NCBI GenBank assembly: GCA_029210625.1
Contig: JARGFU010000001.1
Coordinates: 133,806 to 197,805, forward strand
Direction: 5' to 3'
Length of the DNA stretch: 64,000 nucleotides
Source of the DNA: Deltaproteobacteria bacterium
GTDB taxonomy: Bacteria > Myxococcota > Myxococcia > SLRQ01
The translations under genes and the position numbers were made by a program. Positions within the stretch are counted from its first letter, which is position 1; each line of letters begins with the position of its first letter. Shown in pieces: positions 11,971-63,541 of the stretch. The notes under the pieces were generated by a model. It was not told where the DNA came from, did no database searches, and saw nothing but the letters and a program-made list of their open reading frames with translations.

Positions 11971-12345
11971 TCAGGGGGCGATCCGGCTCCAGCCGATCAT
12001 CCCGCCCTGGAGGTTGTGGACGGTCGCGAAGCCCATCTGCATGAGGGCCATCGTCGCCCGGGCCGAGCGGGCGCCGGAGCGGCAGACCATCACCAGGGGC
12101 GGGTCGCGGTCCCAGGTGGAGGCGGCCTGGATCAGGCTCCCCAGGGGCACCAGCTCGGCGCCTTCGATGTGCCCGGCCTCGTACTCGTAGGGCTCCCGCA
12201 CGTCGATGACCCGCAGGCCGTGGTCGGGCTTCTCGAGCTGCCCGGCCAGCCATCCAGGGCCGGTCTGGGAGATCCCTCCCATCACCCGGGGCACTCCGTC
12301 GAGGTCGCTGGCTCCACCCATCCGTCTCTGGAAATCGAAGAGCAT
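11971..12345 (-). CDS. Single-domain rhodanese-like sulfurtransferase
   Basis: Active-site loop CRSGARS within a 124-aa rhodanese fold. Confidence 0.85.
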   Translation of the reverse strand: MLFDFQRRMGGASDLDGVPRVMGGISQTGPGWLAGQLEKPDHGLRVIDVREPYEYEAGHIEGAELVPLGSLIQAASTWDRDPPLVMVCRSGARSARATMALMQMGFATVHNLQGGMIGWSRIAP

Positions 12346-12496
12346 CCGGCTCTCTCCTCCAAGGCTCCAAATGGAGATTGATTCTCAACAGACAAGAGCC
12401 TGCGCCGGCCCCCGAGGATTCACCAGCCGGCATTTTCCCGGGTGGCCCTCGGGAAAATCTAGGGGGCGGAGGCCCGTGCTACCCTGGTTTGCGCAG

Positions 12497-58445: not shown

Positions 58446-59195
58446 CTAGCTCGCGGGCTTGAAGAGCTTGGGATCGAGGTCGAGGTTCTGCTCGAGGCGC
58501 TCGGCCACGAAGCGGGCCCGGAGCTTTCCGTCGACGCGCAGCTGGATCTCGCGGGGGTGGAGCTCGCCGGTGGCCGGATCGTTGAAGCCGGTCATGCGCA
58601 GCTCGAGCAGCTGCTCGCCCGATTTCGTCCGCACCTGCACCGGCAGGAGCTTCTCCTTGTCGAACCAGATCGAGGGCTTCTCCACCTCGCTCGGCTTCGC
58701 CCCCACGACGTAGACCATCCGGTCATCGAGGCGGGAGAGGCCGCTGTAGGCGAGGTCGATCTTCCAGCGCTTGGCCAGGGCGTCGAGCTTCTCGGCGCCG
58801 AGCTCCTTGATGGAGAGGACCGGGCAGGCCAGGGAGACCAGCTCGTCGAGGAGCGCGAGCTTGCCGGCGGCCTTCGCGATGAGCTTGCCGTCGCGCACGA
58901 TGACGTGGGTGCCGCCGAGCTCGCCGGCCACTCCGTCCTCGTCGATCTCGAAGCGGCAGTCGCCCGGGAAGCGCAGGGTGTGGGTCGCCGGCAGCACCGT
59001 CCGCACCCCGGCCGCGTCGGTGATCACCAGCCGGCCGCCGACCTGCTGGTTGTCGGACTTCAGCTTCTCCCGCTGGCTGGCGAAGAGCTCGAAGATCGCG
59101 GTGGCGGGCAGCACGTAGGCCAGGGCCGGAGCGGCGACGCCGAGGGTGAGGGCCGCCAGCGCGGCGAGGAGGTGCTTTCGATGCAGACGCTTCAT
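58446..59195 (-). CDS. Hypothetical periplasmic protein (LolA-like size/fold is only a guess)
   Basis: Signal peptide MKRLHRKHLLAALAALTLGVAAPALA. 249 aa. Confidence 0.45.
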   Translation of the reverse strand: MKRLHRKHLLAALAALTLGVAAPALAYVLPATAIFELFASQREKLKSDNQQVGGRLVITDAAGVRTVLPATHTLRFPGDCRFEIDEDGVAGELGGTHVIVRDGKLIAKAAGKLALLDELVSLACPVLSIKELGAEKLDALAKRWKIDLAYSGLSRLDDRMVYVVGAKPSEVEKPSIWFDKEKLLPVQVRTKSGEQLLELRMTGFNDPATGELHPREIQLRVDGKLRARFVAERLEQNLDLDPKLFKPAS

Positions 59196-60070
59196 GATCC
59201 TTCTCTCTCGAGCAGCTCGCGCATCATCGCGAGCACGCCCTCCCGCAGCTCCTCGCGCTCGAGGGCGTAGGCGAGGTTGGCGTGCAGGTAGCCCAGCTTG
59301 TCCCCGGCGTCGAAGCGCTCACCCTTCACCACGATGCCGAGCATCCCCTCCTCGGCGCAGAGGGACTGGAGGGCGTCGGTGAGCTGGATCTCGCCGCCGT
59401 GTCCCCGCCCGGTGCGGGCGAGGTGGTCGAAGATCGAGCCGGGCAGGAAGTAGCGGCCCATGATCGCCAGGTTGGAGGGGGCCTGGCCCTGCGCCGGCTT
59501 CTCGACCAGCTCCTCGATCCGGAAGACCTCGCCCTCCCACTGACCGGCGACGATGCCGTAGCGGTGGGTCTGATCGTCCGGGACCTCCATCAGGGCGATG
59601 ACGCCCTTGCCCTCGCGCTCCCCCACGACCTTGAGCTGCTCGATGGCCGGGACCTCGCAGCGCATCAGGTCGTCACCGAGGATCACCGCGAAGAACTCGT
59701 CGTCGGCGACCGGCCCGCGGGCGCAGAGGACGGCGTGGCCGAGCCCCAGGGGCCGTTTTTGCCGGACGCTGGTGAGGCGGCACATCATGCTCACCGCATG
59801 AACCGCCTCGTACTCGGCGCTCTTCCCGCGGTCCTGCAGGGTGCGCTCGAGCTCGAAGGCGATGTCGAAGTGATCCTCGATGGTGCCCTTCCCCCGCCCG
59901 TTGACGAGCACGATCTGCGAGAGCCCCGCCGCCACCGCCTCCTCGACGTTCAGCTGGAGGGTGGGCACGTCGACGATGGGCAGCATCTCCTTGGGGATGG
60001 CCTTGGTCGCCGGCAGGAAGCGGGTGCCGAGGCCCGCGGCGGGGATCACCGCCTTGGTCGCGTTGCGCAT
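59192..60070 (-). CDS. galU: UTP--glucose-1-phosphate uridylyltransferase
   Basis: KAVIPAAGLGTRFLPATKAIPKEMLP is the GalU N-terminal signature. Start taken at MRNATK (60070), not the track's longer start. Confidence 0.85.
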   Translation of the reverse strand: MRNATKAVIPAAGLGTRFLPATKAIPKEMLPIVDVPTLQLNVEEAVAAGLSQIVLVNGRGKGTIEDHFDIAFELERTLQDRGKSAEYEAVHAVSMMCRLTSVRQKRPLGLGHAVLCARGPVADDEFFAVILGDDLMRCEVPAIEQLKVVGEREGKGVIALMEVPDDQTHRYGIVAGQWEGEVFRIEELVEKPAQGQAPSNLAIMGRYFLPGSIFDHLARTGRGHGGEIQLTDALQSLCAEEGMLGIVVKGERFDAGDKLGYLHANLAYALEREELREGVLAMMRELLEREGS

Positions 60071-60132
60071 GGGGCTCGAAAGGTACCGGGGGGCAGCGGA
60101 GGGGACAAGGGAGCAGGCCCTCGCCCCGCCGC

Positions 60133-60414
60133 TCACTCGTCCCTGGAGGCCGCCTCGACGGTGTGGTCGAGGCAGCGCGCGATCTCGTCCGCGTCGAGGT
60201 GCTCGCCCTCCTTCGGCTCGAGCCGCAGGGCGATGCGATCCCCGGAGGCCTCGACCTCCAGGCGCCCGAGCTTCTCGTACTCGGTGGTCGGGCAGCCGCA
60301 GCGCCCCTCCCGGCAGGCCTGGAAGGCCTCGAGGAGCGCCTCCTTCTTCTCCCCGGTCTCCTCGAGCTTCACCTCGAGGTGATCCGGCTTCTCTTCCAGC
60401 TCGTAGCGCACCAT
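60133..60414 (-). CDS. Small hypothetical protein (93 aa) with a CxxxxCGC cluster
   Basis: GAGGAGGA RBS. The sequence MVRYELEEKPDHLEVKLEE… is protein-like. It is the only real part of the 339-aa track ORF. Confidence 0.45.
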   Translation of the reverse strand: MVRYELEEKPDHLEVKLEETGEKKEALLEAFQACREGRCGCPTTEYEKLGRLEVEASGDRIALRLEPKEGEHLDADEIARCLDHTVEAASRDE

Positions 60415-60443
60415 TCGATGGTCCTCCTCTTCGGTGGCCACGT

Positions 60444-61484
60444 CTACAGCAGCTCGAGCGAGGTGGCGACCCAGGCCTCGACCTCGGCCCAGCGCTCGAA
60501 GACCCAGGCGGCCCGCCCTTCCGCCGGGATGCTCGCGGCGGGGATCCGCCAGAGGCGCACCCGCAGGCGCCGCCCGACCAGCGCGCCCCCGAAGAACTCG
60601 GCGAAGCTCTCCACCCCCTCGAAGCCGGTGTGGGCGAGGATCACCACGTCGGTCTTTGGCGCCGCCTCCAGCAGCGCCAGGACGCCACCGAGCCGCGGGG
60701 GCAGGACGTGGTGGAGGGCCTCGGCGCGCTCGACCAGCGCCGCTTCCCCCGCCTCGCGCAGCCGCGCCAGCGCCCGCTCGCGCTTGGCCGGGGAGAAGCG
60801 GGTCCCCTCCGGGAAGATGAGCACCCCGCTGCGATCGTCGAGGTCCCGGCCCAGCCCGGCCACCGCCGCGACGGCCTCCTCGCTGCGCCGGCCGGAGCGA
60901 TCCACGAAGGCGTTGGGGAGGCGTCGGCCGACGACGTCGAGGCAGGGATCCCAGAGCAGCTCCTCCTTGAGGACGTAGCGCAGCAGGAGGTCGTGGGGGT
61001 TGGCGAGGACGAAGGCGGCCAGCACCGTGTCGGCGGTGCTGGCGTGGCGCACCCAGAGGAGGAAGGGCGGCGGGAGCACCTCCGCGGCGCCCTCCACCTC
61101 CAGCGTCATGCCGTAGATGCGCAGGGCCCCGCCGAAGAGGTGGTCGCTCCACCAGCGCTGGAGGATCCGGTTGCGCTCGAGGTAGCGGGCGTGGCCGCCG
61201 AGGCGGCCCCCGTGGGCCCGAAGCCAGATCGCGCCCGCGGAGAGGAGGCCGGCGGCCTCCAGCCCGAGGTAGAGCCCGAAGAAGAGGACGGCTCGCAGCT
61301 TCCCGGCCCGGCGTCGCCCCGCCCCCGCGAGGTCGGCGAGCCCGGCGAGGAGGAGCCAGGCCGGCGCCAGCCCCCAGACGAGGGCGAAGAGGAAGAGCAC
61401 GAAGGGGATCGAGAGGAGGCGGCGGCGCCAGATCTGCCAGAGGGTCTCGCCGCGCCGGCGCCCGATCGGCAGCGGCCCCGTCAC
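60444..61484 (-). CDS. Lysophospholipid (1-acyl-glycerol-3-phosphate-type) acyltransferase, membrane-anchored
   Basis: Carries the RHASTAD (HX4D) and FPEGTR motifs. Two N-terminal TM helices. Confidence 0.7.
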   Translation of the reverse strand: MTGPLPIGRRRGETLWQIWRRRLLSIPFVLFLFALVWGLAPAWLLLAGLADLAGAGRRRAGKLRAVLFFGLYLGLEAAGLLSAGAIWLRAHGGRLGGHARYLERNRILQRWWSDHLFGGALRIYGMTLEVEGAAEVLPPPFLLWVRHASTADTVLAAFVLANPHDLLLRYVLKEELLWDPCLDVVGRRLPNAFVDRSGRRSEEAVAAVAGLGRDLDDRSGVLIFPEGTRFSPAKRERALARLREAGEAALVERAEALHHVLPPRLGGVLALLEAAPKTDVVILAHTGFEGVESFAEFFGGALVGRRLRVRLWRIPAASIPAEGRAAWVFERWAEVEAWVATSLELL

Positions 61485-62026
61485 CGCCCGGCCAGGCCCT
61501 CGATCGCCGCCATCACCTCGTCGAGGGGCGCGTGATCGCCCGCCTCCCGGCTGCGCTGCTGGTAGACCGTCTTGCCAGCGGCGGTGATGAGGAAGACCCC
61601 GCCGAGCTGCCAGGGGTCACCCTTCACCGCCGTCTGCCGGAAGCCCGCCTTGAGGGCCCGCAGGGTGTGCCCGGGGCTGCGCAGGGAGAAGGCCCCCCAG
61701 GCCCCGCCGGCCTTCAGCCCGGCGGCGGCGTAGGCCTTCATCTCGGGGTCGACCCAGAGCTCGAAGTCGATCCCCGCCTCCTCCCGGAAGGCGCGGGCGT
61801 AGTCCGGCGTCCCGTTGCCGATCACCACCAGCCGCACGCCCCTCGCCTCGATCTCGGCTTGCGCGCCGCGCAACTGCGCGACCTGCTCGCGGCAGAAGAT
61901 TCACCCGAAGTGGCGGATGAAGACGAGGAGGACCGGCCCCCGCTCCCAGGCCGAGCGCACCACCACCGGCGCGCCTCCATCGTCGACCAGCTCGATCGCC
62001 GCGAGCTTCTTCGCCGGATCACTCAA
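61481..62026 (-). CDS. Candidate selenoprotein: PRXL2/PAMM-family (AhpC/TSA_2) thioredoxin-fold protein with TGA (61901..61903) read as Sec in a U-x-x-C redox motif
   Basis: TTG start with a GGAGGTGA RBS, overlapping the SDR stop. Two track ORFs lie in the same frame, separated only by a TGA: …LLVFIRHFG-[TGA]-IFCREQVAQL…GGVFLITAAG. The motif G[C/U]xxCRE matches PRXL2A RRPGCFLCREE. A GC-rich hairpin starts about 10 nt 3' of the TGA. Confidence 0.5.
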
Positions 62027-62997
62027 GGCCTCACCTCCACGTCGCAGATCTCCTCGCAGAAGCGCCAGAGGGCCTCCCGCTCGGCGGGCGCTTCCCGCGT
62101 CCCGGGCAGGAGGTAGGGCGAGACGACTCGCCGGTCGAAGAAGAGCTTGCCGCTCTCGCCCTCCACCCGCTCGGCCACCGCCAGCCACAGCGCGGTGTCC
62201 GCCCCCTCCTCGGCCGTGCGCAGGCGCTTCTTCGTGAAGCGGTAGAAGGCCGGGAGCGAGCGCTCGACCCCCGGGGTCGCGGCCCAGCCCGGGTGCATGG
62301 CGTTGACGGTGGTCCCCGAGCCCCGCAGGACCTCGGCCCACTGCGCGGCCTGCACCACCTGCGCTCGCTTGGTGTGGGCGTAGGCGACCACGCCGTCGTA
62401 GGGGCCTTCCGTGGCGCGCATCGCCTCGAGGTCCAGGCGCCGGGCGTACATGCCCCCCGAGGAGACGTAGATCACCCGCGAGGAGGCGAGCCGCTCGCGC
62501 AGCAGGTGGTTGAGCAGGAAGGGCCCCACCACGTGGGTCGCCAGCGTCAGCTCGAGGCCCTCCTCGGTCAGCTCTCGCTCCGGCGGGAGCAGGCCGGCGT
62601 TGTGCACCAGCACGTCGATCTTGCGGTCGCCCTCCCGGCCCTCCAGCTCGGCGGCGAAGGCCCGGATCGACGCGGGGCTAGCGAGGTCGATCACCTCGAG
62701 GTGCAGCTCACCGTTGCCGGTCTCCTCGATCAGGGCCTGGCGCGCCGCCTCGCCGCGCTCGGCGCTGCGGCAGAGCAGGTGGACCCGGGCGCCCAGGCCC
62801 GCCAGGCCGCGGGCCACGGCGAGCCCCAGGCCGCTGTTGGCGCCGGTGACCAGGCAGACCTTCCCCGCCATCGAGCGCTGGAGATCCTCGGGATGGAAGG
62901 CGCGCTGATGGCGCAGGAATCCCGTGCGATCGAAGGAGTAGTAGATGCTCGCGTCGAGCAGTCGATCGAAGATCCCCATGTCCCGGCCTCCCACCAC
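62023..62997 (-). CDS. SDR-family short-chain dehydrogenase/reductase
   Basis: TGANSGLG (NAD(P) binding) and YAHTK (YxxxK). The start could be MGIF at 62979. Confidence 0.8.
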   Translation of the reverse strand: MVGGRDMGIFDRLLDASIYYSFDRTGFLRHQRAFHPEDLQRSMAGKVCLVTGANSGLGLAVARGLAGLGARVHLLCRSAERGEAARQALIEETGNGELHLEVIDLASPASIRAFAAELEGREGDRKIDVLVHNAGLLPPERELTEEGLELTLATHVVGPFLLNHLLRERLASSRVIYVSSGGMYARRLDLEAMRATEGPYDGVVAYAHTKRAQVVQAAQWAEVLRGSGTTVNAMHPGWAATPGVERSLPAFYRFTKKRLRTAEEGADTALWLAVAERVEGESGKLFFDRRVVSPYLLPGTREAPAEREALWRFCEEICDVEVRP

Positions 62998-63351: not shown

Positions 63352-63541
63352 GGTCACCCACACACCTCGAAAGCGAGCCCGGCACCGGAGCACCAATCCA
63401 TGCCCCTACCGAAGTCGGGCAAGGGTGTCAGGGTGAGAAAGGAACTTCCCGGAGGGGTAGGAAGAATAGCCGCCCTTTTGGCGAGGCGGAGTGAACGTAG
63501 ACTGAGTTATCAGACCCAGGGCGGGGCTCGTTCGAGTCAGG

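Follow-up and report, generated by a model that had tools for sequence, protein, structure and literature searches.

Within a 64,000-nucleotide stretch of contig JARGFU010000001.1 from a Deltaproteobacteria bacterium of the Myxococcota (hereafter the window), the minus-strand frame 62026..61481 very probably constitutes an intact selenoprotein gene in which an in-frame TGA encodes selenocysteine (Sec). A first-pass annotation of this DNA had proposed a Sec-containing protein of the PRXL2 family at this site, and the proposal is supported here by the alignment column that Sec shares with Cys in relatives, by conservation on both sides of the TGA, and by a covarying hairpin that is specific to the TGA forms of the gene.

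One reading frame and its Sec/Cys column

Translation of the minus strand from 62026 to 61481 yields a single 181-codon frame with one internal stop, TGA 61903..61901, in the context ...LLVFIRHFG*IFCREQVAQLRG..., where the residues before the stop are GPVLLVFIRHFG and the motif around the codon is FIRHFG-U-IFC-REQ. The two open reading frames (ORFs) 61901..62341 and 61481..61873, which the annotation had placed in one frame, do share it, and the joined frame contains neither frameshifts nor further internal stops. Because same-frame pairs of long ORFs are frequent by chance in DNA of 72% GC, we scanned all in-frame TGAs of the window on both strands for coding composition over 40 codons on each side, requiring a GC content at third codon positions (GC3) above 0.85 together with a moderate value at second positions (GC2). 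The TGA at 61903..61901 was the sole one to pass, with a GC3 of 0.90 upstream and 0.97 downstream. The proposed TTG start, the ribosome-binding site before it, and the overlap with the stop of the upstream short-chain dehydrogenase/reductase (SDR) gene (TGA 62025..62023) can all be read directly in the sequence, and the TTG falls in the alignment where the orthologous loci L113 and L159 have their ATG. The GenBank call for this region, MDF1561560.1, is a 139-aa fragment that follows the TGA and has a noncanonical ATC start (61900..61898) directly behind it, and the TTG "start" (61873..61871) of ORF 61481..61873 is a Leu codon inside the loop of the hairpin described below; both post-TGA starts are annotation artefacts. 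Among 46 high-GC3 ORFs of the window, 25 end in TAG and 21 in TGA, the latter including the selenoprotein gene itself and the upstream SDR gene, and TAA is never used. UGA is therefore an ordinary stop here, and its global reassignment was rejected.

A protein search with the complete frame returned mostly shortened relatives, in that about 100 of the best 120 matches are calls of 114-146 aa spanning ~70% of the query, which is the signature of gene callers cutting at an unrecognised Sec codon. The full-length relatives (184-204 aa, ~53% identity) are single ORFs rather than two separate genes and read RHFGCLFCREQV; in these Cys forms (proteins P0002-P0005 and P0007) the Cys falls in the column of the TGA. 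A further full-length relative, P0006, from a 1.5-kb ENA contig, has Arg in this column (VFVRHFG-R-LFCREQ), which is one base from TGA if the codon is CGA and may reflect a true substitution, an error or an artefact of gene calling. A scan of species-representative genomes found TGA at the Sec column in seven loci of metagenome-assembled genomes, five from Myxococcota (L001-L005) and two from Anaerolineae (L013 and L014), and Cys (TGC or TGT) at this column in the remaining loci. Some of these genomes also carry a Cys-type paralog (RHFGCIFCRE...) 0.6-2.5 kb from the Sec-type gene (L003 ~5622, L004 ~4722, L013 ~992 and L014 ~2493), the two genes being directly adjacent in the Anaerolineae loci L013 and L014.

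Metagenomes were scanned with the degenerate pattern HFG-TGA-x-[FL]-C-R-E, which fixes the codons around the TGA, and yielded at least 120 contigs with TGA at the Sec column, all but two of which encode the same protein family on both sides of it. Conservation (...vFlRHFG-U-xFCRE...) reaches well past the residues fixed by the search pattern. The nearest relatives of the window gene (L001, L113, L159 and L163) all have the TGA, which is therefore ancestral and neither a fresh mutation nor an error. Comparison of the window gene with L113 gave a dN/dS of ~0.36 upstream of the TGA and ~0.37 downstream, rough values at a divergence near saturation. For the Cys forms, we assembled 76 distinct homolog stretches from L001-L080, the forms of L006, L009 and L010 included, and in these Cys is the sole alternative in the Sec column. 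Among close homologs, Sec forms appear to outnumber Cys forms.

These comparisons bear on whether the window gene might be a pseudogene, that is, an ordinary Cys-type PRXL2-like gene killed by a nonsense mutation in this genome. We regard this as very unlikely: the TGA is common to all the closest relatives and to at least 120 contigs of several phyla, which argues that the mutation is not recent, coding GC3 and a dN/dS of ~0.36 are kept in both halves without frameshifts or additional stops, and the covarying hairpin is intact in the window, with seven of seven pairs and the AGUU loop. In its favour are the presence in GenBank of only the 139-aa post-TGA fragment (MDF1561560.1) and the lack of visible Sec machinery in the 64-kb window, where no tRNA was found and 23 of the 46 larger ORFs were surveyed. 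An error of sequencing or assembly that turned TGC or TGT into TGA is hardly credible. The window does come from a metagenome-assembled genome, and TGA is one base from either Cys codon; however, such an error would not repeat at the same column in at least 120 independent assemblies, and it leaves unexplained both the TGA-specific hairpin and the UUG codon of its loop, which the Cys forms lack.

The family of the encoded protein was examined with U replaced by C in all searches. The protein passed the gathering threshold of Pfam AhpC-TSA_2 (PF13911; 71.6 bits, E 9.1e-20, cut-off 27), scored 39.6 bits against AhpC-TSA (PF00578; cut-off 26) and 26.9 bits against Redoxin (PF08534; cut-off 26.6), and reached 133.9 bits against the NCBIfam model NF040769, "SelL-related redox protein" (curated cut-off 120; profile positions 4-172 of 173). 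Its sole relative among solved structures is the prostamide/prostaglandin F (PGF) synthase PRXL2B (entry 9us9, E 1.5e-9). The alignment crosses the TGA (query residues 18-174) and places RHFG-U-IFC-R of the window protein on RRFG-C-VVC-R of PRXL2B, with U at the first Cys of CxxC; in a further PRXL2B entry, 9usa, Ser replaces both CxxC cysteines. The annotation had assigned the protein to the PRXL2/AhpC-TSA_2 family and the TGA to the first redox Cys of a CxxC motif, and both assignments hold, the former through the PF13911 score and PRXL2B, the latter through the PRXL2B alignment and the Cys homologs. Typical peroxiredoxins (PF00578) have a TxxU motif, with Thr or Ser three residues ahead of the peroxidatic Cys or Sec in PxxxTxxC/U, as distinct from the thioredoxin-like UxxC (PMC1088965); the window protein, with R-H-F-G-U-I-F-C, lacks the former and has the latter. 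It also lacks the UxxU of Selenoprotein L (SelL) proper, there being only one in-frame TGA and a TGC (Cys45) at the second position. The first two bases of this Cys45 codon are invariant in all 119 Sec-form stretches aligned below (G17; C19 in the next codon), an invariance that is not independent, as the metagenome search pattern had TGY fixed there. By these sequence comparisons, the window protein is a thioredoxin-fold member of the PRXL2/SELENOU/SelL-related family, whose PRXL2A, PRXL2B and PRXL2C (SELENOU1, SELENOU3 and SELENOU2) represent the selenoprotein U family in mammals as Cys forms (bioRxiv 10.1101/2025.05.29.656587).

The alternative that the frame is really two genes, the first an upstream ORF of 41 codons and the second encoding a protein of 130-139 aa that starts after the TGA, corresponds exactly to what gene callers give, for example 40 aa plus 127 aa in L201, and likewise for P0001. 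The post-TGA product, however, would be without the first redox residue and the preceding beta-strand, whereas the PRXL2B fold alignment covers both parts and the Cys orthologs are single proteins. Of the starts available to it, TTG 61873..61871 is the Leu codon of the hairpin loop and the GenBank start is a noncanonical ATC, and neither a Shine-Dalgarno sequence nor a conserved start codon follows the TGA. Taken together, these points make a division into two genes highly improbable.

A SECIS-like hairpin after the UGA

To compare the RNA downstream of the UGA, 119 distinct TGA-form stretches were aligned without gaps and numbered from the U of UGA as position 1, the window coordinate being 61904 minus the position. 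They share one conserved helix, formed by pairs 22-39 to 28-33 and closing the loop A29-G30-U31-U32, and several of its pairs change on both sides. Pair 24-37 is CG in 71 stretches, GC in 30, UG in 5 and GU in 3; pair 26-35 is CG in 87 and UA in 17; pair 27-34 is GC in 97, UG in 11, CG in 4 and AU in 2; and pair 28-33 is CG in 100 and GC in 5. A covariation test, tallied on 116 distinct rows with the same pair pattern, found standard pairs in 86.5% of the cells of the conserved stem compared with 71.8% after shuffling, and 104 cells changed on both sides compared with 37. The covariation score of the stem was 0.423 against 0.179 in shuffled alignments, a value that none of 500 shuffles reached, and controls with slid partners gave at most 0.153. 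RNAalifold recovers the core of the conserved stem independently. In the loop, 108 of the 119 Sec forms retain G30 and 105 retain U31.

The hairpin distinguishes Sec forms from Cys forms of the gene. All seven pairs form in 71 of the 119 Sec forms and in none of the 76 Cys forms, six pairs or more in 89 and in one, respectively, and the AGUU loop is found in 96 and in four. With a uniform detector (at least six consecutive pairs and a GU-containing loop of 3-6 nt that begins 16-37 nt downstream of the UGA), 85 of the 119 Sec forms were positive, compared with one of the 76 Cys forms (one of 24 at a GC content of 60% or more) and 3.7% of shuffled Sec forms. Even where a Cys form encodes the very same peptide, CREQVAQLR, the hairpin is absent. 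For the Leu codon of the loop, 92 of 103 Sec forms (89%) use UUG, a rare codon that accounts for 8.7% of the Leu codons elsewhere in the same genes, and this excess reflects selection at the RNA level. Bacterial selenocysteine insertion sequence (SECIS) elements place their apical loop 16-37 nt from the UGA (PMC10778597) and have a small apical loop with a guanosine (PMC1088965); the geometry of the window hairpin agrees, with a small G-containing loop that starts 25 nt after the UGA. By comparison of sequences, the 7-bp AGUU hairpin is a well-supported SECIS-like element specific to the TGA forms of the gene.

Of the hairpin proposed in the first-pass annotation, the claim that a SECIS-like element follows the UGA at a suitable distance stands, but the stem as drawn is not the conserved one. 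That stem, GCCGCG...CGCGGC with a GCAGGUC apex, can be drawn, and shares only its 3' arm with the conserved hairpin. Pairing positions 11-16 with 34-39, it lacks covariation, being 69.0% paired compared with 69.6% after shuffling, and has C-C at pair 13-37 in 36 of the 119 stretches. A mini-hairpin, CGCGA-GCAGG-UCGCG, which resembles the GCAGGUC motif of fdhF, was likewise rejected, as pair 16-24 is G-G in 36 and pair 17-23 is A-C in 45 of the 119. RNAalifold also predicts a small helix enclosing the UGA (CGGN...NCCG; window 61887-61908, minus strand; columns 3-6 with 17-20), in which no pair has changed on both sides and the columns are mostly fixed by the search pattern.

The hairpin is not uniform among the Sec forms. 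Most of those outside the exact register have it moved by one or two bases, or have the earlier hairpin CGAGCAG-GUU-GCUCG, again with G-U in a small loop. The off-register subclades include L082, L158, L165, L167 and L170 (CRE[TSM]V.[DE]LR) as well as L089, L109, L114, L123 and L178; their hairpins are shifted or lie earlier, with GAU, GGA or GUU as the loop, and none is obvious in L170.

Decoding of the UGA and the gene neighbourhood

Several observations weigh against a selenoprotein at this site. In the 64-kb window no tRNA, and hence no tRNA-Sec, was found, and a Pfam survey that covered 23 of the 46 larger ORFs (20 in the size range of SelA, SelB and SelD plus three operon proteins) found no selA, selB or selD. 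An Rfam scan of 61400..62100 with E values up to 10 returned no SECIS family, only chance matches to miRNA and snoRNA families, and the minimum free energies of the 67 and 44 nt after the UGA were no better than those of dinucleotide shuffles (z +0.31 and +0.20). The conserved 7-bp AGUU stem covaries, but neither its stability nor an Rfam match sets it apart; stability is uninformative at 72% GC, and the case for the hairpin is accordingly a comparative one. About 30 of the 119 Sec forms are without the exact hairpin register. Finally, the shuffle controls take no account of how closely the sequences are related, and the pattern used to gather the metagenome set fixes codons around the TGA.

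Indirect support comes from carriers of the TGA-form gene, which can decode Sec: one of them, the 63.8-kb metagenome contig L143, encodes a tRNA-Sec at 12336-12431 (+), 6.5 kb from its TGA-form gene. This tRNA was found by ARAGORN and scores 64.3 bits against Rfam RF01852 (threshold 47). None of the ORFs between the tRNA-Sec and the TGA-form gene in L143 is SelA or SelB; the intervening ORFs encode ATPase and platform proteins of the type II secretion system type, a 2-hydroxyacid dehydrogenase and a methyltransferase. Deltaproteobacteria, as formerly circumscribed, rank with the bacteria richest in selenoproteins, and the myxobacterium Anaeromyxobacter dehalogenans, which belongs to them, has 11 (PMC1794560).

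We also considered that the UGA might be read through without selenium, either by a near-cognate tRNA that inserts Trp, Cys or Arg with the help of the hairpin, or by tRNA-Sec delivering Cys at low selenium. A hairpin behind a stop codon can in general stimulate read-through, the relative P0006 has Arg in the Sec column, and it is from the sequence alone that we infer selenium insertion in this organism. Set against this, the residue is the catalytic position of CxxC and Cys is its sole alternative among the 76 Cys-type homologs, the hairpin matches bacterial SECIS elements in its distance and its G/U loop (PMC10778597, PMC1088965), and the carrier contig L143 encodes a tRNA-Sec, so that selenium-free read-through appears quite unlikely.

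If the frame is a selenoprotein gene, UGA codon 42 would be decoded as Sec instead of stop, with the in-ORF 7-bp AGUU hairpin recruiting SelB that carries Sec-tRNA(Sec), as bacterial SECIS elements do. Sec42 would occupy the place of the attacking Cys in the CxxC of PRXL2B. By analogy with that enzyme, its selenolate may attack an oxidised substrate, be it a peroxide, an endoperoxide or a disulfide, and plausibly a lipid-derived peroxide; resolution by Cys45 would then give a selenenylsulfide, and the enzyme would be recycled by a thioredoxin-type reductant.

The selenoprotein gene lies between an SDR gene and a gene for a PlsC-type acyltransferase (Table 1), and the acyltransferase gene begins with a GTG (61484..61482) that overlaps the TGA stop of the selenoprotein gene (61483..61481). 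If translation of the acyltransferase depends on this overlapping stop/start, the efficiency of Sec decoding would also gate acyltransferase expression. In about 18 of the 125 TGA-form loci listed, the Sec protein runs in frame into a C-terminal SDR, with 462-477 residues after U, and the fused SDRs are homologs of the upstream SDR of the window (47-57% identity); the fusion is thus the same partnership in another gene order. Examples of the fusion are L003, L004, L092, L106, L116, L122, L141, L150, L153, L166, L180, L183 and L195, among others, and the proteins P0079 and P0119. In L163 the SDR gene lies upstream of the Sec gene, as in the window, and in L116 an acyltransferase homolog follows the fused gene. 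Other subclades, and L113 too, are without SDR and acyltransferase neighbours; the SDR link is therefore real but limited to one clade. The link and the operon hint, speculatively, at a lipid-related substrate.

Table 1. Coordinates of the selenoprotein gene, its hairpin and the flanking features in the window
Feature	Position	Strand	Remarks
Selenoprotein coding sequence (predicted)	62026..61481	minus	181 codons, TTG start, Sec at codon 42, TGA stop
Start codon TTG	62026..62024	minus	sole in-frame start codon here; overlaps SDR TGA stop (TTGA)
Shine-Dalgarno-like GGAGGTGA	62038..62031	minus	read from sequence; GGAGG to TTG, 7 nt
UGA codon read as U42, first position of UxxC	61903..61901	minus	Sec/Cys column; PRXL2B alignment
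TGC, Cys45, proposed resolving Cys of UxxC	61894..61892	minus	alignment to second Cys of PRXL2B CxxC
SECIS-like hairpin GUCGCGC-AGUU-GCGCGGC	61882..61865	minus	7/7 pairs form in window; covariation
Hairpin 5' arm GUCGCGC	61882..61876	minus	
Hairpin loop AGUU	61875..61872	minus	loop start 25 nt after UGA
Hairpin 3' arm GCGCGGC	61871..61865	minus	
SDR gene, upstream	62997..62023	minus	Pfam adh_short, 1.7e-21
PlsC-type acyltransferase gene, downstream	61484..60444	minus	Pfam Acyltransferase PF01553, 8.8e-11
Terminator-like sites, upstream of SDR gene	63489..63445		

Two further observations concern other parts of the window. Between the acyltransferase gene and a GalU-like gene (60136..59192), the C-terminal part of ORF 60133..61152 (window ~60136-60420, minus strand) looks like a small acidic protein carrying the motif CREGRCGCP (MVRYELEEKPDHLEV...), and it may be a short gene of its own. 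At 30678-33008 (+), a 776-aa ORF with the domains MVP_shoulder (PF11978, 6e-31) and Vault_3 (PF17795, 6e-9) of eukaryotic major vault protein is a bacterial vault-protein-like gene.

RHFG-U-xFC-RE proteins occur in Myxococcota, in Anaerolineae and in many unbinned metagenome lineages. A wider proposal, which we put forward tentatively and hold to be possible rather than probable, is that these proteins (PF13911/NF040769) form a widespread bacterial selenoprotein subfamily unnamed in current catalogues, with a family-specific SECIS and with an SDR/acyltransferase linkage that would suggest a lipid peroxide or endoperoxide reductase. Their AGUU SECIS may also shape the encoded peptide VAQLR(D/G). 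If the proposal is true, the recurrent SDR fusion or linkage and the PlsC-type acyltransferase of the window would suggest an enzyme that reduces lipid peroxides or endoperoxides, in analogy to PRXL2B as prostaglandin F synthase.

Relation to known selenoproteins

The SECIS of E. coli fdhF carries a conserved loop G-U (G23/U24), which is what SelB recognises. Like that element, the window hairpin lies within the ORF soon after the UGA and has a small apical loop with a conserved G-U. It differs from fdhF in that its loop lies ~7 nt further from the UGA, that its 7-bp stem lacks a bulged U and is capped by the four nucleotides AGUU, and that it has no Rfam match; SelB would be predicted to bind it.

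Descriptions of thioredoxin-like UxxC "peroxiredoxin (Prx)-like" selenoproteins in bacteria date back to 2004-2005, and marine metagenomes contain such proteins in abundance (PMC1088965, PMC2398784). We compared the window protein with the Sargasso Sea Prx-like protein, the Global Ocean Sampling (GOS) Prx-like 1/2/3 proteins, the Prx-like thiol:disulfide oxidoreductase and the cd02970 peroxiredoxin-like UxxS protein. The bacterial Prx-like UxxC selenoproteins share with it the thioredoxin fold, Sec as the first residue of UxxC and a SECIS within the ORF (PMC1088965, PMC2398784, PMC13188914). In the Sargasso Sea set, Sec forms outnumber Cys forms (22 compared with 4), as appears to be the case among the close homologs of the window protein. 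Unlike the window protein, the Prx-like families are defined by PF00578, PF08534, a weak PF04592 or cd02970, and the comparison with them is by description only. A 2026 list of 119 prokaryotic selenoprotein families names PF00578 (UxxC/UxxU), PF08534 (UxxC) and cd02970 (UxxS) (PMC13188914); PF13911 or NF040769 with UxxC is unnamed in that list and in the other lists consulted.

Bacterial UxxC Prx-like selenoproteins, the SELENOU family and the curated NCBIfam model that the window protein passes are thus already known, and what is added here is modest: a selenoprotein call missed by public annotation, a family-specific SECIS and the lead from the SDR fusion. The window gene leaves the understanding of Sec decoding itself unchanged. 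MDF1561560.1 and roughly a hundred related database entries are cut at the Sec codon, and family catalogues therefore under-count selenoproteins and lose the active site. The TGA forms, at least 120 in number, supply a clean SECIS alignment that covaries and for which the Cys forms are matched negative controls; it would be useful for improving bacterial SECIS models, as these now miss the AGUU element (no Rfam match). The recurrent SDR fusion gives a starting point for testing what a bacterial PRXL2/SelL-like redox protein does.

SelL, like SELENOU a eukaryotic selenoprotein, lends its name to NF040769. The window protein scores above the curated cut-off of this model and has in common with SelL the character of a peroxiredoxin-like redox protein and the place of the redox motif. 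SelL proper carries Sec at both ends of its motif (UxxU), and the pair can form a diselenide (PMC3316567; bioRxiv 10.1101/2025.05.29.656587), whereas the window protein has Cys at the second position. In the selenoprotein U family, Sec forms are found in fish and birds, whereas mammals have Cys forms (bioRxiv 10.1101/2025.05.29.656587). Compared with SELENOU/PRXL2, the window gene is bacterial and has its SECIS within the coding region instead of the 3' untranslated region used by eukaryotes, genes of its type are found in an operon with, or fused to, an SDR, and its protein is only distantly related to PRXL2B (E 1.5e-9). The two nevertheless belong to the same Pfam family, AhpC-TSA_2, and the CxxC of PRXL2B aligns with the UxxC of the window protein.

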